Below are positions 10,611 to 51,765 of a DNA stretch of 64,000 nt, piece by piece. A program made the translations under genes and the position numbers. Under the pieces are notes generated by a model. That model did no database searches. It was not told the DNA's origin and was given only the letters and a program-made list of their open reading frames with translations. Origin of the DNA: Fistulifera solaris (taxonomy: Eukaryota); the NCBI GenBank assembly GCA_030295235.1, contig AP026128.1:248001-312000 (forward strand), in the 5' to 3' direction. Each line of letters begins with the position of its first letter. The stretch's first letter is position 1.

Positions 10611-10682
10611 AAAATTTGCTGTAGTGTTTTTTGACTACATTGTTTTTCTTATAAATAAACCTTACTGTAATTATTTACATGT

Positions 10683-10770
10683 TTGTCTACGATACTTCGA
10701 CTTAATTAAACTTTGTCTGGTTCCTGGTTCTGACAATGGGTGTGTTGCGTTTTGTGCCGACTCGTGGTCA
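10683..10770 (-). pseudogene. Degenerate relic of the last codons of the GBF1-like gene, co-duplicated with the lipase
   Basis: tttgtctacgatacttcgactt...ctggttctgacaatgggtgtgttgcgttttgtgccga resembles 14102-14170 tttgtctacgatgcttcgacttg...ctggttctgacaatgggggtgctgcttttggtgccga. Confidence 0.8.
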
Positions 10771-12072: not shown

Positions 12073-14044
12073 ATGTGGTCGAAAGCCTCTTCCTACAGTT
12101 TCCTCAGGGTGCGTAAGATATGGCTGTTTTTCCTTCTCCTTCACAATGGGAATGCTCGAGATCAGACCGTTATGAATATACAAGCCGATGGCACCGTTTT
12201 GGAATGCACTGCGCTGAAGAATGATGAAGAACGTTGTATCGTTGTCATGAATCCGGTTCTGAAGAACGAAGAGAATGATATTAAAGACGATTTAGAGGAG
12301 GAGAAGGAGGAGGAGGAACAAGCGTTGGAGAAGAAAAAGTTGGAAGGAATGGATCTAATTGCTTTGTTGGATAAACCCGAAGCCAAACGACAAATCAAAC
12401 GAGCGTTGGATTTGGGAGAACAAGTCGATTTAAGTGCCATTGTGAGTTCCACGTTGTCGCACAGCGTTGCCAAGCTCGGCCAACCGAGCCTTAGTCAAGC
12501 GAAACCAATGGTCGCACTGACAGAAGATAATGATAAAAATGAACTTTCGGGTGTGGAACTGTTGATGACCGCGGCATTACGAGATGCGGCGCAACAAGCA
12601 TCAGGGGATCCGTCTCAATATGTACATCCCGAGCAGATTAAAATTTTTCTCCAAGTAGCCAAGGCGATCTCCCGAAGCAATGATCCTGGTCTGGATACGG
12701 AGTCGTCTCTACAACATCTCATCACCATTGCGGAACCTGATCATCCTATTGAAGGGGAACGGATTGGATTAAGCGAAATTGTGCGGGAGAAGCAGATACT
12801 CCAAGATACATTAAAACATTTGCTGGGTCAGTTGGGACTGCAGTATCTTAATCCCTTGCAAGTACATTACTACATGATCGATGAGGAGATCAGAAAAGAT
12901 CCTATATGGAAACGTCACCTTCATCACTATTTGCCGTCGGTTCCGAAAGAAAAAGTACTGCGAATGACGGATGCATTGTATTTGTCACAGCTCGCCTACA
13001 GCAACAATTGTACACTGATTGAAAGCCTTGTTGCTGGAGAATTCCAGATCGATCCCATCGGCCATAAAGGTCTCTGGACCTTACGAAATTGCTCTGCAGA
13101 TGCCAAACTATTTCAGCCAGCGCATTTTATGATGGTGCAGCAGCCACTACCCAATGGTTCTGTCCCACTCAAGGTAGCCTTGATTATTCGAGGAACACAT
13201 CAGCCAGCTGACTTTTTTTACGGACGGAGCTCTCAATGCCGTTCCTTACCGCGGTGGATTTGTACACGAGGGTGTATGGAACAGTGCGCAGTGGATTCGT
13301 GAAACATACGAAGACGATCTCAAAATGCTCTTGCAGCATCATCGAAGTAATCAAAAGAATGACAAATTGCCACTCAGGTTACATCTCATTGGTCATTCGT
13401 TAGGTGGAGCTGCAGCATCTGTAGCGGCTATTGAATTCAATGACGTGCCCGGATTCGAAGCATTCGCGGTCGGCTTCGGGAGTCCATCGTCATTGTCGCC
13501 GAAGCTGTCGCGGACCATGAGAAATCGGATTACTACGGTGGTGAACGACGCTGACTGTGTACCCCGCATGTCGGCAAGATCCATTGTTAGTGCATGGATA
13601 CAGGTTCTGCAATTCAATTTCACGGATCTGTGTCTAAATGATCTAAATCGGATGATGCCCATCATCAAAAGCAAATATGCTATTTTTGGACCTCTGACCG
13701 ATACGATGCTAAATTTTTGGCGTTCAAAAATGGAGGACCAAATCCGGAAAGAAGCGATAAAGCAATTAAGCAGGACCCAAAAAGCTTTAGTAAACGCGAG
13801 CATAGACCAGTATGAATTGTTGATTCCTATTGGTGACTGTGTCCACTTTTACCGGGATGGGACATCGTGGCAAAGCGTTTACATCGACTGCCTACAGTTC
13901 CAAGAAATTGAAGTCGTTCCGCACATGATCGATGACCACTCTGTTTCAGGAGGCTATTACCCTGGAATGCTTGGCTACCTAAGAAAGCTTGAAAAGAATT
14001 TGAACTTCAGGCCTTTGCATGAGGCAGACAAATTGAGTGTATGA
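12073..14044 (+). CDS. Secreted class 3 lipase, copy 2 (tandem paralog); apparent frameshift in T7 at 13213-13219
   Basis: Collinear with copy 1; removing one T restores ADFFTDGALNAVPYRGGFVHEG and joins the GHSLGG-containing ORF 13325-14044. Confidence 0.85.
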
Positions 14045-14106
14045 TTGTGGTCTAAAAACCTTGTAGTGTCTCTTGATCGTTTAGTATTTACTACCATTAT
14101 TTTTGT

Positions 14107-17100
14107 CTACGATGCTTCGACTTGAACTTTTTCTGGTTCTGACAATGGGGGTGCTGCTTTTGGTGCCGAATCGGGGCTGCTTGGAGTATTGGGACTTGCA
14201 CGAGCATGAGGAGGGCCTCGTCCCTGCGGTGGTTGGCCTCGTCCTTGCAGATTAGGAGGTACTCCTCGCCCACGAGCGTTGAGAACATGAGGTGGGGGCC
14301 CTCCTGGACCTCGATAGTTGGGCGGTGGCTCACCACGTCCGCCGCGAATGGGTCCGCCGCGGACGGGCGGTGGTCCAATTCGAAGATTTGGTGGAGGAAC
14401 GGACCGCGCGTTGGAAGAAGGGCTACCTCTCGCATTTGGAGGAGGGCTAGCTCGTGCATTTGGAGAAAGGATTACTCGTACATTTGGAGGAAGACTTGCC
14501 CGTGATGGTTGCGTAGGGCTCCCTCGGCCGACGGGAGAAGACGGACCTTGTGCACTTGGTGTGTTGACGGTTATTGGTGTCGGTTTCGGTTTTGTCGCCT
14601 TCTGATTGTGCACTGATGCTCCTGCTGCTCCAACGCGCTCAAGCTCTGAAAGCAATATTTCGCTGGCCCATGTGCTGAACTCAGTGTCTCCCTTCCACTC
14701 TTCGGTAACCATGAGGTTCGATAAATAAGTCACCGTCTGCAGCGTTTTCTCGAACAATGGAGACACTTTACCCCGACGCCCCTGTCGTAAGTTTTCTCGT
14801 GCGAGTTGAGCAAACTGTTGCATAATATCAACCAGATCGTCGCGAATTTCTTTGTCGTGGCTCAAATGAGGTAAAACGTGCGAAGCAAGTTGACCGAGTA
14901 ACGAGAAAGTAGTCCCACGACTCGCGTCCGCAGTCACCGGGGTTGTTTGTTTGCCATCAAATACATGATGTCAATCCACTTATCTCCGTTAATCTCACTG
15001 ATATCGGTTCGAATTACCACACGTCTGAAACATTTAGCACCTTCTGAGGACAGTTCAGCATCGGAAGATCTGCAGACCGTGTAAATTGCAACAGCCATGT
15101 TCTGGAAAAGCTCTTCGTTTGGAGCTATTTTTGTAGCGTCCTCAACCTTTCTCTCAGTCTGTTGCAACTCCAATTCGACAATGTGACGATATACTTTCTC
15201 CAAACATAGCATGGCAGGTACCGAAAAAGCGACATCGCCTTGATAGAATGCGAGGACGAAACGTATGAGAATTTTCGAGAATTCGAGCGAAGCATCCATG
15301 GTCAATGTAGAATGTTCTTCTCTAGTAGTAGTATCCTGAGCGTCCACCTGGGGAAGAGCGTATTCGACTGTGGATGCTATTCCATCGAAAACAAACACTC
15401 GAGAATTGTTGAAATGAGCAAGCGTGTCCATCGTATCACCAAGGAACGTCCAGTCATTCGGCGTGTCGAACAAGAAATAACTGTTTCGTAAAACAATCGC
15501 AAGACCACAAGCCATGCGGTCGGCAATGACCTTAATGAAATTTTTTGGGTAAAGACATCATCACGAGATGCAAAGAAGCTTTTAGCTGGCCTCGTGTCTA
15601 AAGCAGATATGACGTGTTAGATATATTGCCCAAAAACCAAAAACGTCCGCCTCCGAGAACTCCTTATTATCCTCTAGCTTACCTCTTCAATATCATATAA
15701 ATGTATACAGCATCGGAGAATCGTAACCACAATTCTTTCGATCACAAACGGAGCAGGTACTTTAGTCGAAGTAACAGTGCTAAGCACCACTTCAAACTTG
15801 TTCAAGAAAGGTATGAACCACTCGAGTGCATGATCTCGGTTCGACAACAGGGCTCTTGTGGCTAATTCAATACTAAAGATTGCATGCTGCTCACCCACAG
15901 GGTCATGTTTGAATGGAAAATCATCCAAGCAGTCGATTTGTAGCTGTATTTTTCGTTTCACATCTGACTGGCCCGTTGCTAGATGCACGACAGCCTCGAC
16001 ATCGGACGCTTCTGCTATTTCCAAGAGAGCTTTCGCAACCTTTGAAAGTTTGTCTCTTCTTCCCGGTAGTCCCAGTGGATCTGCCAACTCGTCTGTGTCT
16101 TTGGAAGTTCTTCTAAAAATTGATCGAAGCCATCCTTTATTCTTTGCTGCCTTCTCTTCTTCGCTGTGGGCACGGTATACTTCTTCTAACCGTCTCTGCG
16201 AAGTTTTTGCAAAGGTAGATTGAGGTAGAACGTTGCCATTACTGTCAGCAAAATCATCCAAGTCCGTCATCCCACCAGGCAGCGCATGTGCGTCTCGAAG
16301 GGCGCAAATACATTCGATAAAAGACGGCCAAGCTGATACAACTCGAGCAGTATACTTCCGGACGACAATGAAACCGCAGTCCAATGCAAGTAGACCTCTG
16401 TGATATGCGCTTCCAGTGATGTCGACGTCCTCCTTGCCTCCGTATGAACAAAGTAATCCATAGGGAATTGGGCGCCCAAGTCCATCACTGTCGAAGTCGT
16501 CTTCCCCCTCCTTGCCAAGTTGCGAATCGCTAGCAGTTTGGCTACCTGAGCTGTCTGTAACTATTGCGTTCATCACATAGTCCGTACCCATAGGGAGTAA
16601 AATATTTAAAACTTCATCAAGAATAGAGCCGCACTCGAAATATGCCGCAACCTTACAGATTGTTTGAAGACCATTGAGTGCCTTCACCACCAAGCCGTCA
16701 TCCCAAGAGCGCTGGAAAATCCCAGCAAAAGCTTGAATGGCTGGCTTTGCGAGTCCAATGAACATCTCTTTGTGATGGAATCCAGCGACCTGACTTGTCG
16801 AACGTGAAACACCCGCTTGTGAAAAGAACGGCAACGCTACTTCCCCTTTCTTCGATATCATGTTATCCCAGACCTTACGGAAGTCCTCTTGCTCGCCGTG
16901 CTGTTTAATAATATCACCCAATTCCTTCCGTACTTCGATTTGCTTGTTCTTGATCTGTTCATAAAGTTCTACAAGAAAGTCTTCCGGTAGATCTTCCCCG
17001 TCATTGATGCCACGGTTATTCCTTACAAATTGCTCCAATGTCATGCGATTTTCTTGTTTGATCATCGGATTGTGCAGGTCAGTGTTAAGCATAATTGTGG

Positions 17101-19900
17101 AAAACGCTAAGACAAAAACAGCATCGGCACTTTTGAAGAAAGACGTTTCTCCTTGTTGCCTGTACAGCTCCTTAGAGAAAGACTCCATGATTCGGTCGAT
17201 GCATTGTGCTTCACCTGGCAATCGAAACTTGGACAAGAATTTGCGCAGCGCTGCGGCAAATGTCATATCTGAAAAGTCGTACCTTCCGACAAACGCATGC
17301 CGAACGGCGGCGTTAAACGGATACGCATCATCCGGTCCCTTGCTTAGATAAATGCCTACTTTGGCTTTGTCTAGCATTGATGCTGTGAATAAAATATCTG
17401 CGACACCCTCGACTGATTCTTTGGACTCCAAAACACCCTCTTTGACCGCAAGATCTAGCCACTCCGAGCTGGAAGATGAAGAATTAAAGACCCGAGCGAT
17501 TTTGACCAGTGCATGCTTTCGGCGCTTTCTTTCGTGTAACTCCTCGGTAGTTATTTGGCTGGCATCATTGGGATCCCACGAGCGCGATGATTCCGCCTCT
17601 GAAATACCGCTATCGGCTCTTGATGACTCTTTGAATGCAGCTGCTTTTCCTGTACATCGTTTAGCAATCGATTCAAGAACGGACAACAATCCCTCCATAG
17701 AGAGACGGTGGAGGTGGGTGACGGGCGAGACCTGGTTACTAACTGCGGGGTCCCGGATGCTAGCGATGACCGACTCAGTAGCACTTGGCTTTTTCGAAAT
17801 CTTGCGGCTCGCCATACCTTCGTCGGAGGGATTGGGAACGCTGTGCTTTGAAGCCATGTCGACTTCCTCGCTCTCCGTGTAGTCAGCGTTGCTTTCATCC
17901 GAGAAAATACCTTCTTCCTCCCATCCAACTGGCGTTGCCGCCTTACCTAACGCGGTGACGATAGCTTCGTATAAATTACTACAAGCCACATCGCAATCGT
18001 AGTTCAAATAGATGTCCTGCACCATATCTGGTTCTTGGCAGAACTCCACCAGCGACTCGAGAGCAACTTCTCGTTCTTCTGGCGAGTGCCGTACACATGC
18101 ATCATCATTAATGATTCGCATATGAATCGACGTCAAGAACACTTCTAAAGGTACTTTGAGCTCATTTCGGATCGACTGAAACAGATTAAAAATCACACGC
18201 AAAGTCAAAGAGAGCAGGGATAAATCATGACTCGAATGACTCCATTGCAACAAGTATCGACAAACGTCATTCTGCAAGATTTGAACTTCTTCACGGGTCA
18301 AAGGTTCACGACACGCTTCCAGAGCAATGTTCACCAAGGTCAAACCATTAGTCACAACCGAATGATTGACTTGCTTCTGCTTGGAGTCAGCACCCTTGGC
18401 CTTCTTTCCAGGAGTTAGAGTGGCATCTCCATTGGCGGCTGCTTCGGTATGCTTGGGATTCAACAATGTGGCGAGTTTTTCCAGTATTTCCTTACGGGCT
18501 TGCATCACGGGTTCATACCCGGGGGCGGCAAAGACTTGGAGAACAATTTGCGAAAGAGCGGAAAACGCCGCGCTCTTCAACAGCGGTGTGGCCTTTTCCG
18601 CTCGGTGACTCACGTGCAAACACGTGTCCATGAGTCGGGAAATGGTACGAGCCTGGACCAAATGGACGGCATCGTCCTGCATGGACGTTCGTACGACGAG
18701 AGCGGCTACGTCCAGCAGTTTCAAGACCGTCTGCTCATCGTCAAACAATAAATCATCCTTGGTACCAGACTTGCGGCGACGAAGATGCGCGAGGCTTCGG
18801 TTCCCAACGGGCCGTAAATGACTTGGTGCACCACCCGAATCGGAGTTGTCGGCATCGCTTTGATTTGCCATAACACCGGCGAACGTTTCCTCGAATGTGC
18901 AACTCAAGAGAGCTTCGGCTATGCGCATAACCGCACCCAGAGGTTCCTTGTTATCTTGATACGATATCGAAGACGACGAGGGAGACACAAAGCCATACAA
19001 CACAAACTTGTGCAGCGACCCGAGAGCTTTCCCCGTAACAACCGCGGAAATTTCAGGTAGCTCAATACATTGGCAAAAGGGTTCCAAGTAGTCCACATCA
19101 ATGACCAGATCCGGTTGCATCGCCACGAGCTCGGCCGCCGCTGTCACCTGCGTCTGTAGATCTTGTAGTGCTTGTACTACCGGGTGCGAGGTAGAATTGA
19201 GGTCTTCATCGTCTTCGACGATTTCTTGCGTAAATCGTGATCGACTGACGTAACGCTGATCTCGAAGGACCGTCAATACATTGTGAATCTCACCCTTGAT
19301 TACCTTGATAGCCGCACGAGAAGGGATGCGATGCTGAGATGTCTTGAGAGAGGTACGTGCCACTGGACGCGTCACTTCATTCTCCTCACACGGTGGCGCA
19401 GTATCCGTCGGTTCGGCGTGCTTTCTGTGCTCCTGTTCTTCAGTTCGATTCTCAACTGGCTCTGTAGGCTTTCGATCGTCGGTACTCTCAGGCACAGCAA
19501 CGTCGGAAGAATCGATCGCAGGAGTGGTCTCTTCCTTGCAAGGGCTAGCCTCTCCATTCTTTTCAACCACATCTTGGGGCATTTTCTCCTCGGTAGGTGG
19601 AGCATCATCCTTTGCGCTGTCGGTTTGCGTATCATCGCTTCGATCCTCCACGAGGTTTTCATCACTAACAACGACATCGTCCGGACCGAATTCTTGTTCA
19701 CAATTGTGGATCAGGTCTTCCGGTACCGAATCTCCGAGTTCCTCGGGCGACGATTCGATCGATACTGCTGTTTCATTCTCATCATCATGCATAGGATTGC
19801 TGTATTCACCATCCGATGTATCGACTGTTTCCATCGTACTCGCGCTCGTTCGTTTCGTTTCAATGCTAAACAAACCCGAGACGATGGTACTGGTGTCCAT
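14107..19900 (-). CDS. GBF1: Large Sec7-domain ARF guanine-nucleotide exchange factor (GBF1/GNOM type); intron 15598-15682; apparent frameshifts 15541-15546 and 14939-14942; Pro/RGG-rich tail
   Basis: DCB region (VTGKALGSLHKF), HUS box (YLNYDCD), Sec7 motifs FRLPGEAQCIDRIMESF and LAFSTIMLNTDLHNP; start codon uncertain (19900 or 19834). Confidence 0.9.
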
Positions 19901-20369
19901 GCCCAAAAACGATACTATTTTCAAGTCGCTGTCCGAATCAAGAAGAAATCAAGTCAAATGCAAAGTCACTTTTGTTTTCTATTTGAATTCACAACCAAAG
20001 CCGAGGAATAATAGAACGGCTTTCCTCTCAATGGTCTTTTTTCTCCACCTTTTTTTGGGTTTTGTTATTCCGCCCGCCCCATCGCAAATGTCTCTTCCAA
20101 ATGTACGAAGAAAGAAGCCGCAAACAGTACAAACCAGACTACATAATAGGCTATACTATTTATAAAAGGGCTTTTTCTATGAGACCAAAAGTAGAATCAA
20201 TGACCCTCTCAGAAAGTGGATCGGCGAAAGGTCATTTCGCGGGGTTTTGGGTCATTGGAGAGTTTATGCGTTCGTCACAAAATTCCCAGTCACGAACTCG
20301 ACATCATCACCCAATGGATAAAGATAGATAATGTATTTGTTTCGCCTCTTTCTCCTCTATACCACAATG

Positions 20370-22674: not shown

Positions 22675-23916
22675 TCATTCATTCTCCGTCTCAGCGAGGT
22701 TTCGAGAACTTTGCAATTGCTGCAGAACTGCTTTGTTTTGGTAGATTTTTCGCGCGGCTCCCAAATCTTCCCAAAAGACCTAACAATGCAACGCCAGGTA
22801 CGTCAGACACAGTCATGGAAATCAACAATGGGCATTCAGGAACGTACCTTCTTTTCAATCGGAAGCACTTCTTTCATACTCGAAATCCAAATTAATGCTA
22901 TGTTAGCCACCGTTATGCCTGTTTCGACAAAGAGCGCGTTTTCCGGTGAGGAAAGTCGGTGTCCGGCAAAATGACAAAAACTGCATTTCACTGACCTATT
23001 GAAATTCGACCCATCTGCCTGTAGTCATCGTAATCATAAACTTCTCCGTATCCCGGAATATTGTTTCGGATTTCGGTTTCTTCCTCTGTAATGACCAGGA
23101 CATCCGAATGACGCGTGAAGATATAAGCGACCCAAATGATACCGGTATTGACTGCCGGTGGCAACAGCGACGCGGAAATGGCCACTCCTACCAATGAGCT
23201 CGTGTTATCATCCAGCAGGGATACTGCAACACCCAAGCCGGAAAAGAACGCCACCGGACAGGCCACGTAAAGATTGATGACATCTCCTCGCGATTCCATT
23301 TCTGGTGTGGGCCAATCATCCGACAAACTCGTCGGCCCCGTGACCAATCCGATCAGAGCACCCATGACAATACAGATCACTAGCGAAGCGAACTCCACCA
23401 CCAACGCACGCTTTACCATGGTCCAATCGCGTATGGTGCTTCCGTAGGCCAGTCCGATGACCGGGCCCATGATCGGTGACACCAACATGGACGCTAGAAT
23501 CGTGGCGTTGCTGTTGGACACCAATCCGAGCCCCGCCAAAACAGAAGCCACCAACAGTAGGACATTGTAGTTGAAATTCATATAAAAACCTTCCTTGATT
23601 TTTTTCGTGCACTGATGAAATGAAATAGCAAGAATTGTGAGTAGACGAAAACATTTCAAACAGATGACCGTCCGAAACAACGGAGTGCATGAAGACTGGA
23701 ATCTACGAAACGGGGAAACGTACTCTCTCGAACCCGATTCACTTGCTCAATCGATAGCTCCGCCACTTCATTGTCATCCACAAATATTTTCACAATGTCA
23801 CGAAACCTGACGTTGCCCGTCAAGCTGCTCACTTGTTCTTTGACCGGTTCAATGTGATCACTGTGGACGGGTGCGATCAGTCCGGGTCGACTTGCTGCAG
23901 ATTCCGATACGCTCAT
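22675..23916 (-). CDS. DUF389 multi-pass membrane protein, copy 1 (4 exons; apparent frameshift 23599-23605)
   Basis: ASMLVSPIMGPV and SLVGVAISASLLPPAVN motifs; introns ~23612-23723, ~22919-22995, 22780-22847; last exon VFWEDLGAARKIYQ. Confidence 0.82.
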
Positions 23917-24485: not shown

Positions 24486-25765
24486 TCAATCATCACACAT
24501 CCGAGCGAGATTGCTGGATGACCGAACCGGCTGCAGGACCGCCCGATTCTGGTAAATTTTTCGCGCGGCTCCCAAATCCTCCCAAAAAATCTGACGAAAT
24601 GTGAGATGGAATATGCGTGGGTCAATAGGGACGGAAAAAGACTTGCAAAGCTTACCCTCTTTCCACGGGAAGTACTTCTTTCATACGAAACATGATCATA
24701 CTCGAAATCCACACCAAGAATACGTTTGCTACCGTTATGCCTGTATTTCCGACCAAATCCGTGCATGATGAGTTTCGATGTAATAGCAAAACAGATATGC
24801 CCGTGAAGTATGCTTACCTATAGATGTACGTCCCGCCCGCCGGTAATCATCAAAATCGGGAGGATAAACGTACTCCGATAGCGCGTCATTTTCCGCAACG
24901 TCTACCGGTAGAACAACTCTCGAATCGCGCGTAAATATGTGAGCCACCCAAATAATACCTGTATTGACTGCTGGCGGCAACAGAGACGCGGAAATGGCGA
25001 CTCCGACCAAAGAACTCGTGTTGTCATCGAGAAGAGATACGGCAACGCCAAGGCCCGAAAAGAACGCGACGGGACAGGAAATGTACAAGTTGACGATATC
25101 ACCTCGAATTTCCATTTCTGGAGTAGGCCAATCGTCGGATAAACCTGTCGGACCTGTGATAAGTCCGATCAAAGCTCCGATTGCAACGCAGGCAAATATG
25201 GAAATGAGCTCCGTCATGAGGGCCCGCTTCACCATCGACCAATCACGAATGGTGGCTCCGTACGCCAAACCAATCACGGGACCCATGATGGGAGAGACCA
25301 GCATTGACGCTATCACTGTAGCATTGCTGTTGGAAACGAGACCAAGGCCGGCCAGAATGGAAGCAACAACCAACAAAACATTGTAATTGAAATTCATGCG
25401 GAAGCCGTATCGTATTTTTTCGTGCACTATACAAAAACAAGATGAGAAAAACAGATTCGTGGAAAAGAGGCAATACAAGAATATGCACGAGATAGAAGAT
25501 GATCTCCTCAATCAGTCATTGCATTTCTACAAGACTTACTTTCTCGAATCCGTTTGACTTGTTCGGCCGACAGCTCTGCAATCTCCGTGCAGTCTACAAA
25601 AATCTTGACAAAATCACGCAATTTGACATTGCCTATCAAGCCGGTTGTTTCCTCGACAGGCTCAATGTGGTGCGTTTCCACGGGTGCTGCTTCCGGTAAC
25701 AGCACTGCGGGTAAGCTTATCTCCCCCGCCGGTTCGACGGAGATTCCATCCCCTGAAACACTCAT
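24486..25765 (-). CDS. DUF389 multi-pass membrane protein, copy 2 (4 exons; apparent frameshift 24660-24662)
   Basis: Same motifs and same three intron positions as copy 1; last exon IFWEDLGAARKIYQNR. Confidence 0.82.
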
Positions 25766-27017: not shown

Positions 27018-27297
27018 TTATTCATCAGGATGACTTATTTATATTCGGAGCATAAAGACGATTATTAATAGCTCCGCAAAGTTATTAGACAGTTGCGACT
27101 CGACGGAACCGGGGATGGGCACTTTGAATGAATCACGATTGCCAACGCACGGACGGCGGAAGTGCGTTCACACAAAACCACGAAATCGTTTTCAAAGAAA
27201 TATAGCAGCGCAACAACGTAAAAACAGACTCCTGTTTTCATTATACAGTTTGATTTTGTAATATCATCTACCGTAAGAAGACCTAATATTTCCAAAG

Positions 27298-29067
27298 ATG
27301 GATCCTCAAGGTGACAGCAGTACGGGTATGTCACGTGCAGCCAAGAAACGGGCGAAAAAGAAGCAAAAGTTAAATGTTGATCGAAACGACGCCGAGCCGG
27401 CAGACGCACCATCCGGCAGCAAAGAAGAGACATTGAAAGATCCGGAAAGCAAAGCTGTCCAAAAACGTAAATTTGTTCGTGTCAAGGAAGAGGAGACGAG
27501 TGCAGACGACGATGATGATTCATCGCTGCAGCCTTCTCAATCTTTGCAGTACCAGACTCTGGTCGAGATTCTCAGAGATACCAAGAATAGCATGACCGCG
27601 AGTCAAAGATCTCGTGCTACACTCGAATTTCTTCTTGGCAAAGTGTCGGCAGCGGAATTTTATGCCAAGTATTGGGAACAGAACCCGCTTTTCATACAAA
27701 AAACGACCGATACACACGCCAGGCGATTCGAGCACTTGCTCTCCAAAAGCAGAATTAAGGAAATATTACAAGAGAAAGCAACTTACTATGGACGTGACTT
27801 AAACGTGGCACGGTACGAAAAATCGAAAGATGGTGTGAAACGACGTGTCACATTGGATCGGTTGAAGGATAAGGTTGTTTGTGAAGAAGATCCGACGGAT
27901 GTAAGAAATTTTGTCAAGGTAGATCCAGATGATATTTGGACACACTATGAACGTGGCTGCACGATACGACTCCTGTGCCCACATGAACACTCTGATGAGA
28001 TACAAGCATTGCTGAGCACATTGGAATTGGAATGGGGCTGCATGGTGGGAGCGAACGCTTATTTGACTCCTCCCAATAGCTCACAGGGTTTCGCACCCCA
28101 TTATGATGACATCGAGGCATTTTGCTTGCAATTAGAGGGAAAGAAGAGATGGAAAGTGTACGCTCCCCTCAATCCAGAGTCAGTATTACCTCGTTTTTCG
28201 AGTTCCGATTTTAGAGAGGAGGACTTGGTCGGAATTCAGCCCGTACTGGATGTCGTTTTGGAAGCAGGTGATATGCTGTACATGCCTCGCGGTTGGATAC
28301 ACCAAGCGTGTACCTTGCGTTCCGGTGCAGAAGATAATGAACATTCGTTGCACTTGACGGTTTCGGCCATGCAACAATGGGCTTGGGCTGATTTAATGGA
28401 AGTCGTATTTCCTGAAGCAGTTCAGGCTGCTGCAGAAAGTGCAAAGTCGAATGAACTTCGGCAAGGTCTTCCCCGCAATTTCCTTGATTACATGGGCGCG
28501 ATGCACGACAATAATCCTGACAAAATGCCTGAAGCTCTTAAAATGTTGGCGAAGAGAGTCGAGTCACAGGACGAAGTAGATGCCAAAACAAAGGCACTTA
28601 AACGACAAGAAAGGTTTCGTTCAGAAGCGAAAAGGAGAATTATGGCGGTTGCGAATGAGGCCGTGGAGCTTTTGGACGCTGCATGTGATCAAATGGGGAA
28701 GCGTTTCATCTCGGATCGTCAACCGCCTGTCTGGTCCGAAGAAGAGAGGGAGATATTGTATGCTGAAACAAAAATTCTTCCGTCACACCTGTGTCGACTT
28801 GCTCGTCCGGGAATCGCTCGTCTTGTTCTTGAGGACGACAAAGCAGTTGTCTATCATTGCAATGACAATGCTCGTACCTACCGTGCGCATGCATTGAGTC
28901 CTCTTGAATTTGAACTTGACGACGCTCCAGCCATTGAGCAGCTATTGGGAACCACCGAACCACAATGGATATGCGTCGCTGACCTGGTTCATGATACAAT
29001 GGAAGATAGAGTCGGTGTCGCTCAAGCATTGTATGACGAGAACATACTGCTTCTACGAGAAGGATAA
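27298..29067 (+). CDS. RIOX1: JmjC ribosomal oxygenase, NO66/RIOX1-like
   Basis: ANAYLTPP, GFAPHYDDIEAFCLQLEGKKRW, LEAGDMLYMPRGWIHQA, SLHLTVS; basic NLS-like N-terminus. Confidence 0.88.
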   Translation: MDPQGDSSTGMSRAAKKRAKKKQKLNVDRNDAEPADAPSGSKEETLKDPESKAVQKRKFVRVKEEETSADDDDDSSLQPSQSLQYQTLVEILRDTKNSMTASQRSRATLEFLLGKVSAAEFYAKYWEQNPLFIQKTTDTHARRFEHLLSKSRIKEILQEKATYYGRDLNVARYEKSKDGVKRRVTLDRLKDKVVCEEDPTDVRNFVKVDPDDIWTHYERGCTIRLLCPHEHSDEIQALLSTLELEWGCMVGANAYLTPPNSSQGFAPHYDDIEAFCLQLEGKKRWKVYAPLNPESVLPRFSSSDFREEDLVGIQPVLDVVLEAGDMLYMPRGWIHQACTLRSGAEDNEHSLHLTVSAMQQWAWADLMEVVFPEAVQAAAESAKSNELRQGLPRNFLDYMGAMHDNNPDKMPEALKMLAKRVESQDEVDAKTKALKRQERFRSEAKRRIMAVANEAVELLDAACDQMGKRFISDRQPPVWSEEEREILYAETKILPSHLCRLARPGIARLVLEDDKAVVYHCNDNARTYRAHALSPLEFELDDAPAIEQLLGTTEPQWICVADLVHDTMEDRVGVAQALYDENILLLREG

Positions 29068-29181
29068 GAGCAAGTAGCGAGTGCATGTAGCTAAAGAAAT
29101 GAGTTGCTCTTAAATGAATTTCACTACATAAGGGAACTTGTCCTACACTATTTGACATACAGTACCTGGTAAGCCCCCACT

Positions 29182-30929
29182 TCAAATAGTAGCCGTCCTC
29201 TCGGTATCCTGCTGCATTGGCTGGGTAGCAGCCTGAAGTTGCGAAGCTAAATCGAAATTATCAGCACCAAGATCTCCTTTGTTCATACTTTCGTGAAGAT
29301 GACTAAGACCCGTCTCACCCGTCATTCCTTCTCCGGTTGCCGATTGCTGCTGCAAGAAAGAGCCGGCGGCGCCTCCAGCTGCCAAAGCCTCTTGCAGTTT
29401 GTTTAATGTGGCACTATCGACTTGTCCGGACGTGTTGTCCGGCATCAAACCGTTATCTTCCGGAAGGCTCGAATGGCGTTTATCGACCTCCGGGTAAGCA
29501 TGGCTAACACTTTCTTCCTCTTGATTCTTCTCACCGTCGGATCCTCCTGCCTCCTCTGGCACATGCCCTTTCTCGTCATCATCCATATCCGCACCAGATC
29601 CTTTCTTCATGCGCTTCATCTTCATGCAAAGTTGGGGGCAATCACGGACAAACATCTCATGAAAGTACGAATTGTGGTCGTTACCGGAAACGATTCGTCG
29701 GAAGCCCCATCCATTCACCTGGTTGTGAGGAAAGAAAAGCGACAAAAGTGAGTATTCGGGTTGGATTGGATACCCTTATGCAATGAACGAACGATTGTTG
29801 CGACCCAAGGTCGACCTTCAAATGAAGGTTTCGACGCAAGATCGTCCTCCTGCTCTGACAATTTTTTACTTACTTGGCGCATAAATGAAGCATACCTAGT
29901 TGCGAGGAAAGAAAAGCGACAAAAAGTGAGTTTTAAGATCGGCCTCCTGCTCTCAAGAAAACCAAACACTTACTTTGCATGTCGGAAATACAGAGGAATG
30001 ACCACTTGTTCAAAGACAGGAGGCTTGAGGATGCGCCACGATCGTCCGTGAGGGTTCCAGCAAATGCACTCCTGAAATTCCGGGTTCGAAAGGATTTGGT
30101 GCAGTTTCAGAGGGAAGGGCGGTTCTTTCTTGCCCTTGCCCGCAAAGGGTTCGGCCCATTCGGCTTCCGGTTTGTCAATCTTGGGCACTTGAGAATTCAT
30201 GAGCCCCGATCCCGACAAGGCGGAAGAGAGTTGCAACGGAAGACCAGCTTGCGGCGGTCCAGCTTGTCCCAAATTGAGCCCAGCGGCGGCCATGACGGGC
30301 AAACCCTGTTGAAGGAGCTGTTGAGCCATTTGCAACTGTTGGAGCTGTTGCAATTGCTGAGGATTCAGTTGACCCCCCAACATCATTCCCGCGAGCGCCA
30401 TGGGGTTGAACAGACCACCTCCCAACAAAAACTGCTGCGGATTGAACTGTTGCTGATTGTTCTGCTGCTGCTGATTCTGATTAAAAGCTTGTTGTTGCTG
30501 CTGCTGCTGTTGCTGCGGTTGTTGAAAGTTCGGAAATGCCATGGGCTGTTGCGAAGAACCATTGTCATTGGGAGCCGCCATGATGTTGCCTGAGATGCCG
30601 CTACTCGAATTGTCATCTCCGGGTCCCTTTTCTTGAATACCACTGTTGTTCATTGCCTGTTGTTGTTGCTGCTGCTGCTGTTGCTGCTGCAACTGCATCT
30701 GAAGTTGCTGGAGCTGCTGCGGAGTAGCTCCATTGAGAAAGGGAAACCCGGCCGGTGCACCATTGTTTTGTTGCTGTTGAGGCTGAGGCTGTTGAAAATT
30801 CTGGACGGGCACGTTGTTATTGTTTTGTGCTGCTGCGGCGTTTCCTTCTCCTTCATTCTCGCCTTGAGAGGATTGCTGCTGAAGCTGCTGCAACTGTTGA
30901 AGTTGTTGCAATAAAGTGGAGGCGTCCAT
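29182..30929 (-). CDS. Heat shock transcription factor with polyQ N-terminus; introns 29896-29973 and 29719-29873 around a 22-nt microexon (29874-29895)
   Basis: FPLKLHQIL, CWNPHGRSWRI, YFRHAK|YASFMRQ|VNGWGFRR, YFHEMFVRDCP: complete HSF DNA-binding domain after splicing. Confidence 0.93.
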
Positions 30930-33315: not shown

Positions 33316-33695
33316 TGATGAACAGAACTGGAGTTCCTGTCTTTGTTTTTAGTTTGTGTAATGAGTAGTAAAGACAATTTTAGCCAAAAGGGAATGAATG
33401 AATAAGTGTCTTTTAGTTGGATGCGATACATGCCGATCGATCGCTTCGTGTTATTTGCTACTCCAGTACTCCGTACTACGTAATTGCTACGCAAGTCGTC
33501 AGTGTCTTAGCGGTAATAGCTGACAATCTCGTTTGTACGTCGTACGGCGTTTTTCATTTCGTCCATCCGACGATTTTTTCCTCGTTTTTTTTTTCGTCAT
33601 TTTGTTGTCCTTGTTCAGAGTTGTCCTTCCTATACACGTTCATTGACTCTTTTGGGATCCTTTTAGTAACCAATTATACAGAAAGACAAGAGATT

Positions 33696-34916
33696 ATGTC
33701 GGTAGATGACGAGATTGATTACGACGAATTGATTCGACAAATTGAATCGGACTGGAATCTCGACGACTGTCAACAAGAATTGTTGGATGCCGCTCGGTAC
33801 GATGATTTGGAGGTCGTTCGGGCCATATTACACTGTCATCCCGAACTAGTAGCGTACCAAGATCCTCATACGGGAAATTCGGCACTCCACATGGCGGCGG
33901 CAAATGGACACGCCGCCATTGTCCAATTTCTCTTGTCGGTCGGAGCCCGTGTGGGTTTGGAAAATAGAGCCGGGAATTCACCCTTGCATTGGGCGGCATC
34001 CAACGGAAAACACGAAATTGTGCAACTACTGCTCCAAGAATCCCAAGCCGATGTGTTGCAACGGAATCGGTTCGGACGTTCGGCCCTGACGGAAGGGTTT
34101 ACGAGTGAAAATACCGATGTGGTGCAAGCTTTGTTGGAACACGCATCGGCATCGGAAGAACGTTTAATGGCGACCGCGGGTTCTTCAAAAGAAGAAGCGT
34201 CGGTGACACATTCATTTCAAATGAGTAATGCCCAGTTTCAAGTCCGTGAATTGGCCATTGCTCAATCGTCGGAAGACACTATTTTGGGTCAAGAATCACC
34301 GGAAGACGATACGACCGGATTGGGAATTTGGGCGGCGTCTCTGATATGTGCCCGTTGGGTGGTCGAATGGTTTTCCAGTAAGGATTATAAGCACGTCTTG
34401 GAGTTGGGAGCCGGCTGTGGTGTCCCAGGTCTCGCGGTCGCTACCATGGGGGTAGCGTCAAAGGTGTATTTGACCGATTTCAATGCGCGAACGGTGAACA
34501 ATCTACAGCACAATGTCGAAATTAATGGACTGGCAGATTGTGTCGAGGTTCTCAATATGAATTGGCAGGATCGATCAACATGGCCTCAGGAAAAGATGGA
34601 CGTCGTGATCGGATCCGACTTGATTTACCAATCCGACATGGCACCCTTGCTGGCCACCACCTTGCAACAGCTGGTGGCGCACCATGGCCGCTTTTTGTAT
34701 GCCGCACCCAAGGAGGGACGACAAGGTCATGCCGACTTTTTAGCGTTGATGGAACAATCCGGATTTCAGTTGTTACGAGAAACGGAACCTCCGTCATCGT
34801 ATTTGGAGAATCCTTTGCAAAATCAGGACGACGAGGATTTTTATTTGCATTTTCATGACCTTCAGAACACTGATATGAATTACAGACTTTATGAATTTTT
34901 GCAAACGAACGCGTGA
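33696..34916 (+). CDS. Ankyrin-repeat (Yar1-like) plus family-16 (METTL21-like) protein methyltransferase fusion
   Basis: GNSALHMAAANGH, GNSPLHWAASNGK; TGLGIWAAS, VLELGAGCGVPG, LTD, LNMNW, VIGSDLIY. Confidence 0.87.
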   Translation: MSVDDEIDYDELIRQIESDWNLDDCQQELLDAARYDDLEVVRAILHCHPELVAYQDPHTGNSALHMAAANGHAAIVQFLLSVGARVGLENRAGNSPLHWAASNGKHEIVQLLLQESQADVLQRNRFGRSALTEGFTSENTDVVQALLEHASASEERLMATAGSSKEEASVTHSFQMSNAQFQVRELAIAQSSEDTILGQESPEDDTTGLGIWAASLICARWVVEWFSSKDYKHVLELGAGCGVPGLAVATMGVASKVYLTDFNARTVNNLQHNVEINGLADCVEVLNMNWQDRSTWPQEKMDVVIGSDLIYQSDMAPLLATTLQQLVAHHGRFLYAAPKEGRQGHADFLALMEQSGFQLLRETEPPSSYLENPLQNQDDEDFYLHFHDLQNTDMNYRLYEFLQTNA

Positions 34917-43566: not shown

Positions 43567-43968
43567 GATTTTATAGGGAGAGAGTAGAAACAACGAATGC
43601 CTTTTGACAACAATTTGAATGCAACCAGCAACACAACAACATCGGCCTTCCTCGTACTGTTGTTGTTTTTCGCGAGAGCCTCGATCGCGATGAGCAGCTA
43701 GCAATCGCTGTACGACATCCGGGACGAGCGACGAAAGCCTCGCGCTCGCAACCCCATACTTGTAGCTTGTAGCCCAAAGCTGGAGAGAGATCAAATACAC
43801 CTTACGATTTACGATGTATTTCAAGGAACAAAGAAAGCAGTAACCTTTGAAATTGAAACGAGACGCATTTCCTATCGACTCAAAAGAAAGTCAAGATAGT
43901 TTTTCATTGCATAAGGCTCAACTATCGGTAACGCAAAGGGGTTTTGTGCTCCTACTCTAGCTAGAATA

Positions 43969-46527: not shown

Positions 46528-47339
46528 AATATCCGTTGTTAAAGCGTGACTTGACCCACCAAAATTGTGACCCGTGGGCTAATATATTTGTTGCTGGTAA
46601 CACCTGTCTATGAACAAGTGGTGTTCATTGTTCAAGAATCAAGTCTTTCAGAACAAGCTTGTAGATAAATCTTGGAAATTCAATTAATGCTAGACTGTAG
46701 ACTGTCTGAGAACAAGTGGTCTTTTATGACAAGCTTGAATGTTCACTGTTCACTACGCACGGAGAATTTATTGGCTGTTAGTAGAGACTGTCTATGAACA
46801 AATAATGGTGTTCATTACTTCAGAAAAAATTCTTAGCGTCTGTTCTGCGAACAATGAATGTTCACTACAAACAATACAACCATTCCAGAATTTCTGGAAC
46901 GGGCACAGAATTTATGTATGATCCAAACAACTGAATATCCGTTGTTAAAGTGTGACTTGACCCACCAAAATTGTGACCCGTGGGCTAATATATTTGTTGC
47001 TGGTAACACCTGTCTATGAACTAGTGGTGTTCATTGTTCAAGAATCAAGTCTTTCAGAACAAGCTTGTAGATAAATCTTGGAAATTCAATTAATGCTAGA
47101 CTGTAGACTGTCTGAGAACAAGTGGTCTTTTATGACAAGCTTGAATGTTCACTGTTCACTACGCACGGAGAATTTATTGGCTGTTAGTAGAGACTGTCTA
47201 TGAACAAATAATGGTGTTCATTACTTCAGAATAAATTCTTAGCGTCTGTTCTGCGAACAATGAATGTTCACTACAAACAATACAACCATTCCAGAATTTC
47301 TGGAACGGGCACAGAATTTATGTATGATCCAAACAACTG
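46528..47339. repeat. Near-identical head-to-tail duplication, 406-bp unit x2, covering the left border of the satellite
   Basis: aatatccgttgttaaag starts at 46528 and 46934; both copies end in atccaaacaactg and differ at only a few positions. Confidence 0.95.
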
Positions 47340-50300
47340 ATTCCAGATATCTGGAACGACTACAGAATCTCTGTTTGACCCAAAACACCCATTTCAGAAT
47401 TTTCGGAACAACCACAGAGTCTCTATTCGACCCAAATAACCATTTCCAGAATTTCTGGAACTACCACCGAATCTCTGTTTGCGCCAAAATATAGATTCCA
47501 GAATTTCTGGAACGTGCACAGAATCTAGTCTATGTTTGATACAAATCAGCGATTCCAGAATATCTGGAACGGCCAAAGAATCTCTGTATGTCGCAAAACA
47601 ACGATTCCACAATATCTGGAACCCAATACAACCATTCCAGAATTTCTGGAACGAGCACAGAATCTATATACAATCCAAAAAAGTGATTCCAGATATTTGG
47701 AACGACTACAGAATCTCTGTTTGACCCAAATTGCCGATTCCAGAATTTCTGGGACGACCACAAAACCTCTGTTTGTCCCAAAATACAGATTCCAGAAATT
47801 CTAGAACGATGACAGAATCTCTGTTTGACCCAATACAACAGTTCCCGAATATCTGGAACGGGCACAGAATCTCTGTTTGACCCAAAACAATTATTCCTGA
47901 ATTTCTGGAACGACCACAGAATCGCTGTTCGACTCAAGCTTCAATCCCAGAATTTCTTGAACGACCACTGAATCTCTGTTTGTTCCAAAAACTTTCCGGA
48001 ATTTCTGGAACGGGCATAGAATCTCTGCTCGACCCAAAACACCCATTCCAGAACTTCTGGAACAACCACCGCATCTCTGTTTGTCCCAAAATATAGATTC
48101 TATTATTTCTAAAACGACTACAGAATCTCTGTTTGACCCAATACAACAATTCCCGAATTTCTGGAACGGGCAGAATGTCTGTTAGATCTAAAACACACTT
48201 TCCAGAATTTCTGGAAAGACAAAAGTATTCTGTTTTGTCCAAATCACCGAATCCAGAATTTTTAGAACGACCACAGAATCTCTATTTGACCCAAATTATA
48301 AAATTCCGGAATTTCTGGAAACACCACAGAGTGTCTATGCGACCAAAAAATTATCCATTCCGGAATTTCTGGAACGACCACCGAATCTCGGTTTGTGCCA
48401 AAAGATATTCCAAATTTTCTGAAACGGACACAGACTTTCCTATGATCCAATACAACCATTCCAGAATATCTGTAACGGGCGCAGAATCTATGTTTAATCC
48501 AAAAAACTGATTCCAGAATATTTGGAACGACTACAGAATCTCTGTTTCATCCATATCACCGATTCCAGAATTTCGGGAACGACCACAGAGTATCTATGTT
48601 TGTTCCAAATTAGTTTCTGGAACGGGCACAGGATCTATGTACGATCCGAACGACGATTCCAGAATATCTGGAACGACTACAGAATCTTTCTGTTTGATAC
48701 AAATCACCGATTCCAGAATTTCTGGAACTACCACAGAATCTATGTTTGACCCAAAACAACTAGTGCAGAAATTCTGGAACGAGCACAGTTCCAGATTTTC
48801 TGGAACGACCACAGATTCCAGAATTTTTGAAACGACCACAGACTTTCGTATGACCCAATACAACCATTCCAGAATTTCTGGAACGGGCACAGAATCTATG
48901 TACGATCCAAAAAACTGATTGCGGATATCTGGAACGACTACAGAATCTCTGTTTGACCCAAATTACCGATTCCAGAATTTCTGGGACGACCACAAAACCT
49001 CTGTTTGTCCCAAAATACAGATTTCAGAAATTCTAGAACGACGACAGAAACTCTGTTTGACCCAATACAATAGTTCCCGAATATCTGGACCGGGCACAGA
49101 ATCTCTATTTGACCCGAAACAATTATTCCTGAATTTCTGGAACGACCACAGAATCGCTGTTTGACTCGAAGCTTCAATCCCAGAATTTCTTGAACGACCA
49201 CTGAATCTCTGTTTGTTCCAAAACACACTTTCCGGAATTTCTGGAACGGGCATAGAATCTCTGCTCGACCTAAAAACACCCATTCCAGAACTTCTGGAAC
49301 AACCACCGCATCTCTATTTGGTCAAAAATATACCTGGTAGGACATTTTTGGGTACTGATTTATTTTTATCAAAATTCAATGCAATGCTAACAAATTTAGG
49401 CTTGTTAAAAAGCTTAAAATGAGTAATTTCTATCTATATACTTATATTATTTTGAAATTGATTTTCAAAAGGCGAAAATCGAGTACCAAAAATGTCCTAC
49501 CTCTTTTTTTTCTGAGTAGATTCTATTATTTCTGAAACGACCAAGGAATCTCTGTTTCACTCAAATTACCGATTCCAGAACTTCTGGAACGACTACAGAA
49601 TTTCTTTTGGACCCAATACAACATTTCCCGAATTTCTGGAACGAGAGAATTGTCTGTTTGATCCAAAACACACTTTCCAGAATTTCTGGAACGACCAAAG
49701 AATTTCTGTTTGTTCCAAATCACCGATCCCAGAATTTCTGGAACGACCACTGAACCTCTGTTTGTTCCAAAAGACACTTTCCAGAATTTCTGGGACGACC
49801 AAAAAAATTCTGTTTGATCCAAGTTACCGATTCCAGAATCCCGGAACAACCACAAACTTTTGTACGACGGAATACAACAATTCCTGATTTCTGGAACAGT
49901 CACAGAATCTCTGTTTGCCCCCAAAACAACATTCCTGAAATTCTGGAACGACCAATGAATCTCTGTTTGTTCCAAAACACACTTACCAGAATTTCTGGGA
50001 CGACCAAACAAATTATGTTTGATACAAGTTACCAATTCCAGAATTTCTGGAACGACCACAGAATCAATGTTTAACCCATTTACCGATTCCACAATTTCTG
50101 GAACGACCACAGCTCTGTTTGATCCAAATTAATTACCGATTCTAGAATTTCTGGAACGACCACCGAATCTCTGATCGTCCCAAAACACAATTTCCAGACT
50201 GTCTGGAACGACCAAAGAAATTCTGTTTGAGCCAAATCACCGATTCCCGAACTTCCGGAACGGGCACAGAATCTATGTTTGACCAAAAACAACGATCCTG

Positions 50301-51765
50301 AATTTCTGGAACCTCCAAGGACTTTCGTATGACCCAAATTACCGATTCCAGAATTTCTGGAATGACCACAGAATCTCTGTATTACTCAAAACAACTAGTC
50401 CAGAATTTCTGGAATGATTCCAGAATTTCTGGAACGACTACAGAATCTCTGTTTGACCCAAAGCACCGATTCCAGAATTTCTGGAACGACCACAAAACAG
50501 CGATTCCTGAATTTCTGGAACCTCCACAGACTTTCGTATGACCTAAATTACCGATTCCAGAATTTCTGGAATGACCACAGAATCTCTGTATTACTCAAAA
50601 CAACTAGTCCAGAATTTTCTGGAACGACCACAGCTCTGTTTGATCCAAATTAATTACCGATTCTAGAATTTCTGGAACGACCACCGAATCTCTGATCGTC
50701 CCAAAACACAATTTCCAGACTGTCTGGAACGACCAAAGAAATTCTGTTTGAGCCAAATCACCGATTCCCGAACTTCCGGAACGGGCACAGAATCTATGTT
50801 TGACCAAAAACAACGATCCTGAATTTCTGGAACCTCCAAGGACTTTCGTATGACCCAAATTACTGATTCCAGAATTTCTGGAACGACCACAGAATCTCTG
50901 TATTACTCAAAACAACTAGTCCAGAATTTCCGGAACGACCACAGAATCTCTGTATTACTCAAAACAACTAGTCCAGAATTTCTGGAATGACCACAGAATC
51001 TCTGTTTGATCCAAATTACCGATTATTCCAAAATTTCTGGAACAACTACAGAATCTCTGTTTGACCCAAAGCACCGATTCCAGAAATTCTGGAACGACCA
51101 CAGAATCTCTTTTTGACCAAAACAACTAGTCAAGAATTTCTGGAACCGCCACAGAATCTCTGTTTTATGCAAATTACCTATTCCAGAATTTCTGGAACGA
51201 CCACAGACTTTCGTATGACTCAATTACCGATTCCAGAATTTCTGGAACGACCACAGAGTTTCTGTACTACTCAAAACAACTAGTCCAGAATTTCTGGAAC
51301 GACCACAGAATGTCTGTTTGATCCAAATTACCGATTATTCCAGAATTTCTGGAACGACTACAGAATCTCTGTATGACCAAAAACACTGATTCCAGAATTT
51401 CTGGAACGACCAAAGAATCTATGTTTGACCCACAACAACTAGTCCAGAATTTCTGGAACGACCACAGAATCTCTGTTTTATCCAAATTACCGATTTGAGA
51501 ATTTCTGGAACGACCACATTCTTTCGTATGACCCAAATTGCCGGTTCCAGAATTTCTGGAACTAATACAGAATTTCTGTATTACTCAAAACAACTAGACC
51601 AGAATTTCTTGATCGAACACAGAATCTCTGTTTGATCCAAATCACCGATTCCAGAATTTCTGGAACGACAACAGAGGAGTCTTTGTTTGACCGCAAACAA
51701 TTTTTAAAATCCATACAGAATCTCTGTTAAGCTTATGTCGTTAGACACTGATTCCAGAATTCTTT
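47280..51765. repeat. Tandem satellite, 51-52 bp monomer, roughly 80-85 copies, with higher-order duplications
   Basis: Consensus TTCCAGAATTTCTGGAACGACCACAGAATCTCTGTTTGACCCAAATTACCGA repeated with variation throughout. Confidence 0.97.
49333..49516. mobile_element. 184-bp AT-rich MITE-like insertion in the satellite, TA target duplication
   Basis: GGTAGGACATTTTTGGGTACT (49336-49356) / AGTACCAAAAATGTCCTACC (49482-49501); flanked by TA; empty site AAAATATAGATTCTATTATT at ~48088-48107. Confidence 0.82.

Follow-up and report, generated by a model that had tools for sequence, protein, structure and literature searches.

Two neighbouring introns of an HSF-type gene in the alga Fistulifera solaris, set apart by a microexon of only 22 nt, are very probably paralogues, that is, copies of one another, and the exon sequence that flanks them is present only once. 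The gene lies on the minus strand of a stretch of 64,000 nt (assembly GCA_030295235.1, contig AP026128.1, positions 248,001 to 312,000 of the forward strand), which is referred to here as the window and whose own numbering is used for all coordinates. The explanation that we favour, tentatively, is a non-segmental duplication of an intron within its own gene, in which one whole intron was copied to a site 22 nt away without any exon sequence, the molecular route being left aside; between a local copy of a whole intron and membership of a dispersed family, the local copy is probable. This preference is founded on the exact boundaries of the likeness, the lack of exon duplication, the young age of the likeness and the fact that no third copy was found where one was searched for, and on the same grounds the copying appears to have been recent on the scale of intron sequence turnover.

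Likeness Between the Two Introns

Both introns open with GTAAGT, a feature that is uninformative because the open reading frames (ORFs) of many relatives stop as if at the same donor. Behind it the likeness is carried by two blocks (Table 1). The 5' blocks are identical at 18 of 19 positions, and the 3' blocks, which end at the AG of the acceptor, align over 39 columns (35 matches, 3 mismatches, 1 gap); the letters of the 3' block suggest a putative branch site (ACTCAC) and a pyrimidine tract in addition to the acceptor itself. A segment of ~81 nt is present in intron 2 only, through either loss from intron 1 or insertion into intron 2, and when a single gap of this size is allowed, the alignment to intron 2 takes in 64 of the 78 nt of intron 1. 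The likeness begins at the donor and reaches the last base of the acceptor, and the flanking exon segments are unrelated.

When the splice sites were trimmed, Smith-Waterman alignment of the two introns gave a score of 29 (z = 12.4), which none of 200 shuffles equalled. Within the window, the 19-mer of the 5' block (allowing up to 3 mismatches) and the 21-mer TTTTGTCGCTTTTCTTTCCTC of the 3' block are both confined to these two introns, against expected counts of 0.01 and 0.00, respectively, and two matches were reached in none of 100 shuffles. Chance is excluded as the origin of the likeness, and self-comparison of the window found no other intron-sized repeat. An earlier note on this DNA had proposed that the introns are homologous copies, and the shared blocks, the alignment score and the uniqueness across the window bear this out. 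Its further statement that the flanking exons are not duplicated also holds, since the microexon resembles neither the 22 nt upstream (z = -0.72) nor the 22 nt downstream (z = 0.99) and the gene encodes a single HSF domain. No residual likeness was found between the unaligned 5' parts of introns 1 and 2, or between these parts and the microexon.

The distance between the introns can be set against the variation that exists within one of them. One variant contig of intron 2 carries 8 substitutions and an AA insertion (1 indel) over an inferred ~117 nt, and a second carries 5 substitutions and 1 inserted base within 89 intron positions; in both, the acceptor reads TAG in place of CAG (29721) and the T run at 29743 is longer, as in intron 1. 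Across 58 aligned columns, introns 1 and 2 are set apart by 4 substitutions and 1 indel, and two of these five differences (C or T at 29721 and the length of the T run) are polymorphic within intron 2. The difference between the paralogous introns is thus no larger than an allelic difference. Haplotypes also differ within the shared blocks, the putative branch site included. More generally, a second haplotype or strain, ~3-7% different, is represented at 29638-29807 and 30241-30443, that is, in intron 2 and parts of exon 1, and samples differ in the length of the homopolymer runs at 29743 and 29920.

Gene Structure and Splicing

The gene runs from an ATG at 30929 to a stop codon at 29182-29184, and its three exons, joined by their coordinates, give an open frame of 504 codons (956 + 22 + 534 nt). 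A slash marks splice junctions in what follows. The joined product reads ...YFRHAK/YASFMRQ/VNGWGF..., with exon 3 opening as VNGWGFRRIVSGNDH..., a normal HSF motif in which the YASFMRQ encoded by the microexon is taken by us to be part of the recognition helix of the HSF domain. The frame of exon 1 comprises 318 codons from the ATG to ...VIPLYFRHA, after which GTAAGT follows, and its product matches the Pfam profile HSF_DNA-bind (PF00447) with an E-value of 9.4e-7 and 29.7 bits (cut-off 22) over residues 272-317; the match covers profile positions 1-46 of 100, and homologues also carry PF00447. Searched alone, the exon-3 product had no Pfam match at E 0.01, the profile search having been made on the separate exon products. 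The intron coordinates, lengths and quoted sequences of the earlier note all agree with those found here (Table 1).

Both introns have GT-AG ends, their removal restores the HSF reading frame, and they are ordinary U2-type spliceosomal introns. Retention of intron 1 would lead to an immediate stop (AAG TAA), and skipping of the 22-nt microexon would lead to a frameshift. The window is occupied by long uninterrupted eukaryotic ORFs and the genome is intron-poor, so that two introns 22 nt apart stand out.

The stretch was found in eight public sequence runs, none of them annotated as RNA, and the contigs of four runs were compared with the window. In run X2, one contig of 1100 nt aligns to 29150-29716, 29872-29892 and 29971-30414 with 0 differences from the window; it omits exactly 155 and 78 nt, with CT..AC ends on the plus strand, and retains the 22 nt between them. 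Read depth inside intron 2 is 0 in this run, and exon 1 is likewise seen in X2 transcript contigs. X2 was taken to be RNA because it holds a contig that is identical in the exons and free of the introns that the window DNA has. Retention of the microexon with removal of both introns, which the earlier note had marked for an RNA check, is thus observed in one contig of a run that is itself only presumed to be RNA. Both introns would be removed separately by intron definition, so that the 22-nt exon is kept.

The unspliced form is present in contigs from two other studies, and misassembly, the possibility that the earlier note had raised against its own observation, is therefore excluded. Contigs of run X1 cover 29785-30270, which takes in intron 1 and the microexon together with the 5' part of intron 2, and X3, a wetland metagenome from an unrelated study, covers 29797-30267 and 29638-29807; these independent contigs hold the unspliced form across intron 1 and the microexon. 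The only X7 contig, unspliced and 159 nt long, is uninformative either way.

Table 1. Exons and introns of the HSF-type gene and the segments compared between its two introns (window coordinates).
Feature	Coordinates	Strand	Description
Exon 1	29974..30929	-	Q-rich N-terminus and first half of the DNA-binding domain; ends ...VIPLYFRHA + AA of Lys codon
Intron 1	29896-29973	-	78 nt, GTAAGT...CTAG; phase 2, inside the Lys codon of HAK
5' shared block, intron 1	29935..29953	-	AGAGCAGGAGGCCGATCTT, 19 nt
3' shared block, intron 1	29896..29934	-	AAAACTCACTTTTTGTCGCTTTTCTTTCCTCGCAACTAG, up to acceptor
Microexon	29874-29895	-	22 nt, GTATGCTTCATTTATGCGCCAA; last base of Lys + YASFMRQ
Intron 2	29719-29873	-	155 nt, GTAAGT...CCAG; phase 0, between Gln and Val (Q/V)
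5' shared block, intron 2	29838..29856	-	AGAGCAGGAGGACGATCTT, 19 nt
Intron-2-only segment	29757..29837	-	~81 nt; short hairpin ACCTTCA..TGAAGGT
3' shared block, intron 2	29719..29756	-	AATACTCACTTTTGTCGCTTTTCTTTCCTCACAACCAG, up to acceptor
Exon 3	29185..29718	-	VNGWGFRRIVSGNDH... to ...TERTATI; inside ORF 29182..29775

Intron Positions in Related Genes

Relatives were searched for with residues 235-318 of the exon-1 product, which gave 55 proteins, including one MMETSP transcript, most of them 85-98% identical in the aligned part of the domain. These proteins are ORF calls on raw contigs, in which the ends of ORFs mark introns, and the sites were curated by eye. The largest group (29 of 55) leaves the HSF sequence directly after YFR, 9 nt upstream of the intron-1 site. 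Another 18 read uninterrupted through HAKYASFMRQVNGWGF; 14 of these enter an intron elsewhere (after FKR, RIVS or LF(V/L)R, or before ILSNPEF) and are hence genomic, and the four without an intron (P0003, P0036, P0047 and P0048) may be transcripts. Two of the 55, P0010 and P0022, stop or diverge right after HAK, which is the site of intron 1 in the Lys codon (the Lys site), and further ORFs of this type belong to the P0010 lineage (P0071 and P0073). Three diverge after KLHQ and P0030 after IPL; P0044 and P0049 were not placed. The YFR-type ORFs P0018 and P0033, both among the 55, together with P0062, resume with an unbroken HAK..VNGWGF, frame-shifted or after the intron. At least 16 genomic relatives among the 55 therefore have no intron at either the Lys or the Q/V site, and P0062 and the metagenome loci L001, L011, L023 and L052 have none at either site as well.

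A search with exon 3 returned two sequences from other strains of the same species, P0058 (a 99% identical ORF) and P0070, and close relatives at 88% (P0059), 84% (P0060 and P0072) and 72% (P0003). P0072, which is 84% identical in exon 3 and the closest relative that can be read at the Q/V site, has the sequence ...NQICSNLPYFFQ/VNGWGFRRIV..., with an intron exactly at the position of intron 2. The last 108 nt of that intron, as translated, gave no match to intron 2, in a comparison that is a weak test since indels shift the frames. Exon-1 ORFs of the genomes behind P0059, P0070 and P0072 were not found in either of the length classes searched. P0068, whose contig equals in length (1,679,170 nt) that of the YFR-type P0004 and is taken to be identical with it, begins MGSPLT-VNGWGF and fits an intron that ends one base further.

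The comparison was extended to 70 metagenome loci (254 kb), retrieved by the peptides FRHAKYAS and FMRQVNGW. A phase-0 intron at the Q/V site is present in nine loci of a more distant clade (L017, L020, L025, L042, L043, L053, L054, L064 and L070), and a third clade (P0074, P0075, P0078 and P0080) diverges directly after ..ARQ, at the same position. In 15 uninterrupted sequences the Q/V site reads CAG/GT (12 of 15) or CAA/GT (3 of 15). The Q/V site is thus widely shared, whether through age or through repeated targeting, and the Lys site is rare; this gene is the only one known to have both introns. Recent gain of a new intron position, as suggested in the earlier note, stands in one part and not in the other: the likeness of the sequences appears to be young, because the Q/V intron of P0072 does not resemble intron 2, but the positions themselves are not necessarily so, as both occur in other lineages.

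Adjacent introns are not generally alike in this gene family. The boundaries of the Q/V intron were extracted for eight of the nine loci of the distant clade, and in all eight the Q/V intron and a second intron 63 nt downstream are unrelated (z from -1.1 to -0.1).

As an observation in its own right, orthologous and paralogous HSF genes whose DNA-binding domains are ~85-98% identical have introns at eight or more sites within the domain (~300 nt), after KLHQ, IPL(Y), YFR, HAK, MRQ, FKR, RIVS, YYHE and LF(V/L)R, a scatter that is unusual for a conserved stretch. The HSF family is described as strongly expanded in diatoms in the part of the source used here (PMC4827209). This expansion, the long ORFs poor in introns and the relatives from aquatic metagenomes, with the MMETSP transcript, point to a diatom as the probable host.

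Origin of the Intron Pair

If a whole intron was copied within the gene, the most likely direction is from intron 2 at the Q/V site, or its ancestor, to the Lys codon upstream, because the Q/V site is the more widely shared and intron 1 corresponds to intron 2 minus ~81 nt. The likeliest single route for such copying, which we put forward with reserve, leads through RNA. Excised intron 2 would have entered its own transcript by reverse splicing, at a donor-like site lying 22 nt upstream (AA/GTATGC, compared with AA/GTGAAT at the home site), and the resulting transcript would then have been reverse-transcribed and recombined into the gene. Both insertion sites are donor-like, reading AA/GT followed by A or G.

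Several points weigh against this account. Nothing in intron 2 corresponds to the 14 nt that follow the donor in intron 1 (z = 1.12). Since two other lineages (P0010/P0071/P0073 and P0022) likewise have an intron at the Lys position, the site of intron 1 may predate the species, in which case copying would amount to replacement or parallel gain. The peptides by which the metagenome loci were retrieved span both intron sites, so that loci with both introns could not be found among them. With regard to the route, no spliceosomal intron has ever been shown to originate by reverse splicing, according to the portion consulted of a review of the cases in Drosophila (PMC2891723), and the present data do not separate the RNA route from one that runs through DNA.

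In the latter, a unit of 177 nt consisting of the microexon and intron 2 would have been duplicated in tandem, and an exact 22-nt deletion would have followed. The left breakpoint of the duplication would lie at the exonic GTATGC, which would serve as a donor, the first exon copy being spliced out together with the first intron copy; a deletion between two AAGTA microhomologies would subsequently restore the GTAAGT donor. The spacing of the repeats is as this scheme predicts (177-178 nt from start to start, with 22 + 155 = 177), the microexon does begin with the donor-like GTATGC, and AAGTA occurs at the Lys site and again where intron 2 begins. In the excerpts of the literature drawn on here, it has been argued that new introns arise more often by tandem duplication than by reverse splicing (PMC2891723), and half of the same-gene intron duplications of fungi are segmental (PMC3609843). 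Two precise events are nevertheless needed, two donors 22 nt apart would compete in the intermediate allele, and the microexon has left no likeness in the first 20 nt of intron 1 (score 4, z = -0.63, equalled or exceeded by 1839 of 2000 shuffles), in a comparison of short strings that has low power and for which a later deletion could have erased the trace. An origin by duplication and deletion is accordingly regarded as unlikely.

A different proposal is that a multi-copy introner or introner-like element of this genome inserted twice, independently, and that the shared ends of the introns represent its conserved termini. The restriction of the likeness to the ends, with a variable interior, is what degenerating elements display, the boundaries of the copies are exactly those of the introns, and introners are reported, in the part of the survey used here, from many algal lineages including at least one diatom (PMC12130899). 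The searches for further copies speak against it. No third copy of the shared blocks occurs in the window, nothing like these introns was found among 22 extracted introns and the 254 kb of related loci (E 0.21 or worse), and the 21-mer is present in 0 of the 70 loci. Neither the 21-mer nor a degenerate pattern of the microexon with its splice sites had a match in viral contigs, and the degenerate pattern had none in prokaryote genomes, both collections holding hardly any eukaryotes. No inverted repeats of 12 nt or more involve the introns, which thus lack terminal inverted repeats; no flanking direct repeat or target-site duplication was seen by eye; and the folds are no more stable than those of shuffled sequences (z = 1.46, -0.30 and 0.14), with no pairing between the blocks. 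Two independent insertions 22 nt apart in an intron-poor genome would moreover be a large coincidence. The introner-like element that the earlier note had named among its possible sources has been weakened accordingly, and we consider an origin from such a family quite unlikely.

Three matches that arose in these searches were discarded. A 16-nt match of intron 1 at 56266-56281 has no donor before it, lies in unrelated surroundings and was read as chance; the sequence around a 14-nt match of intron 2 (43903-43916) is also unrelated; and the sole match of the 21-mer in prokaryote genomes, in a metagenome-assembled genome of Clostridia (L071, 2001-2021), also has unrelated flanks and is attributable to chance.

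It is improbable that the introns owe their likeness to patchwise homogenisation, whether old and unrelated introns were made alike by ectopic gene conversion or template switching, or an old duplication was kept alike by repeated conversion. Such a process would agree with the use of both positions in other lineages and with the patchiness of the likeness (19 nt plus ~39 nt), and the intron-1 states carried by the variants of intron 2 at 29721 and in the T run are ones that conversion could yield. Conversion, however, requires prior homology, which is absent between unrelated introns, and tracts of 19-39 nt lie below the usual minimum for efficient conversion. The 3' patch, furthermore, stops exactly at the acceptor, and no homogenisation is apparent in any of the eight other loci with neighbouring introns. 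That the shared blocks are instead functional elements selected in both introns, such as splicing enhancers defining the 22-nt exon, a possibility that the earlier note had also raised, is scarcely credible: microexons often need special signals and the blocks do lie at comparable places in the two introns, but an exact 21-nt match cannot come from convergence, the intron of P0072 at the Q/V site gave no match, the blocks vary between haplotypes even at the putative branch site, and neither an Rfam family nor a special structure was found for them.

Relation to Known Systems

The comparisons made below draw on portions of the cited papers. Same-gene duplications of near-identical introns have been described in fungi, with 82 members of which half lack exon duplication, and the non-segmental cases were read as transposition of an intron inside one and the same transcript; the same study cites three cases for C. 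elegans (Collemare et al., 2013, PMC3609843). In common with these, the pair described here consists of look-alike introns in one gene with single flanking exons. No copies were seen in other genes of the window or in the 254 kb of related loci. The pair differs from the fungal cases in that the host is a stramenopile-like alga, probably a diatom, in that a distance of only 22 nt, taken up by a microexon, separates the copies, and in that the likeness is blockwise (18/19 and 35/39) with an indel of ~81 nt, and not near-identity throughout.

For Oikopleura, Denoeud and colleagues reportedly described in 2010 similar introns within one gene. The reverse-splicing candidates of Oikopleura share with the explanation favoured here the proposed RNA-mediated spread of an excised intron (review, PMC4122922). 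Introners and introner-like elements, known from fungi and from Micromonas, Aureococcus and other algae, are likewise mutually copied introns bounded by splice sites (PMC3609843, PMC12130899). Their families, however, number tens to thousands of copies in unrelated genes and often bear transposon hallmarks, and the fungal introner-like elements are stably folded, whereas only two copies are present in the window and no such hallmark or fold was found (PMC3609843, PMC12130899). The near intron pairs of Drosophila (Lehmann et al., 2010, PMC2891723) resemble the present case in having positions less than 32 nt apart and a donor-like exonic GT at the new site, and the YFR site common among the orthologues lies 9 nt from the Lys site, as in such a pair. 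Introns this close rarely coexist according to that paper (PMC2891723), whereas here both coexist and are spliced, and, unlike introns created by tandem duplication, the new intron holds sequence of intronic and not of exonic derivation.

The intron pair is a further case of a known, rare kind and reveals no new mechanism. The origin of spliceosomal introns is still debated, and transposon-like introners are documented; the indirect evidence for reverse splicing comes mainly from pairs of look-alike introns that share a gene and lack exon duplication, few of which are on record according to the excerpts of the fungal study (PMC3609843). To these the HSF-type gene adds a clean example outside fungi and animals, with the useful features that both copies have splicing evidence and both occur in independent DNA samples. 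Since intron positions are unusually variable in this gene family, a handful of related genomes could reveal the order of events. Should strains turn out to differ in whether they have intron 1, the reverse-splicing model could be tested directly in an alga that can be cultured.

Beyond a single copying event within the gene, the pair could be the product of an intron-copying process that is still active in the lineage, either reverse splicing or a low-copy introner of a new type that lands at AA/GT beside existing introns. The chance of this is small; if true, such a process would explain the presence of at least eight intron sites within ~300 nt of domains that are ~95% identical.

Genomic Surroundings

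The HSF-type gene adjoins a JmjC/RIOX-like ORF (27277-29067), and the window also contains an ORF for an ankyrin-methyltransferase protein (33417-34916), an uninterrupted Sec7-domain ORF of 1424 codons on the minus strand (15674-19948), and fasciclin and aspartyl protease genes. Within exon 3 of the HSF-type gene, a sub-threshold Rfam match to a small nucleolar RNA (13.7 bits against a cut-off of 45) was rejected.

About 17 kb from the gene lies a satellite array of low GC content (0.39) at 46528-51697, composed of two copies of a 406-nt unit (99% matches) followed by a 52-nt unit repeated ~80 times (67-74% matches). Every repeat of the latter bears a 17-nt palindrome, TTCCAGAATTTCTGGAA, that amounts to two TTCnnGAA dyads, which presumably resemble half sites of heat-shock elements. 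Two pairs of diverged tandem duplicates are also present in the window: 8941-10767 and 12344-14176, which are 72% identical in DNA and encode class-3 lipase-like proteins, and 23105-23613 and 24921-25428, which are 75% identical.

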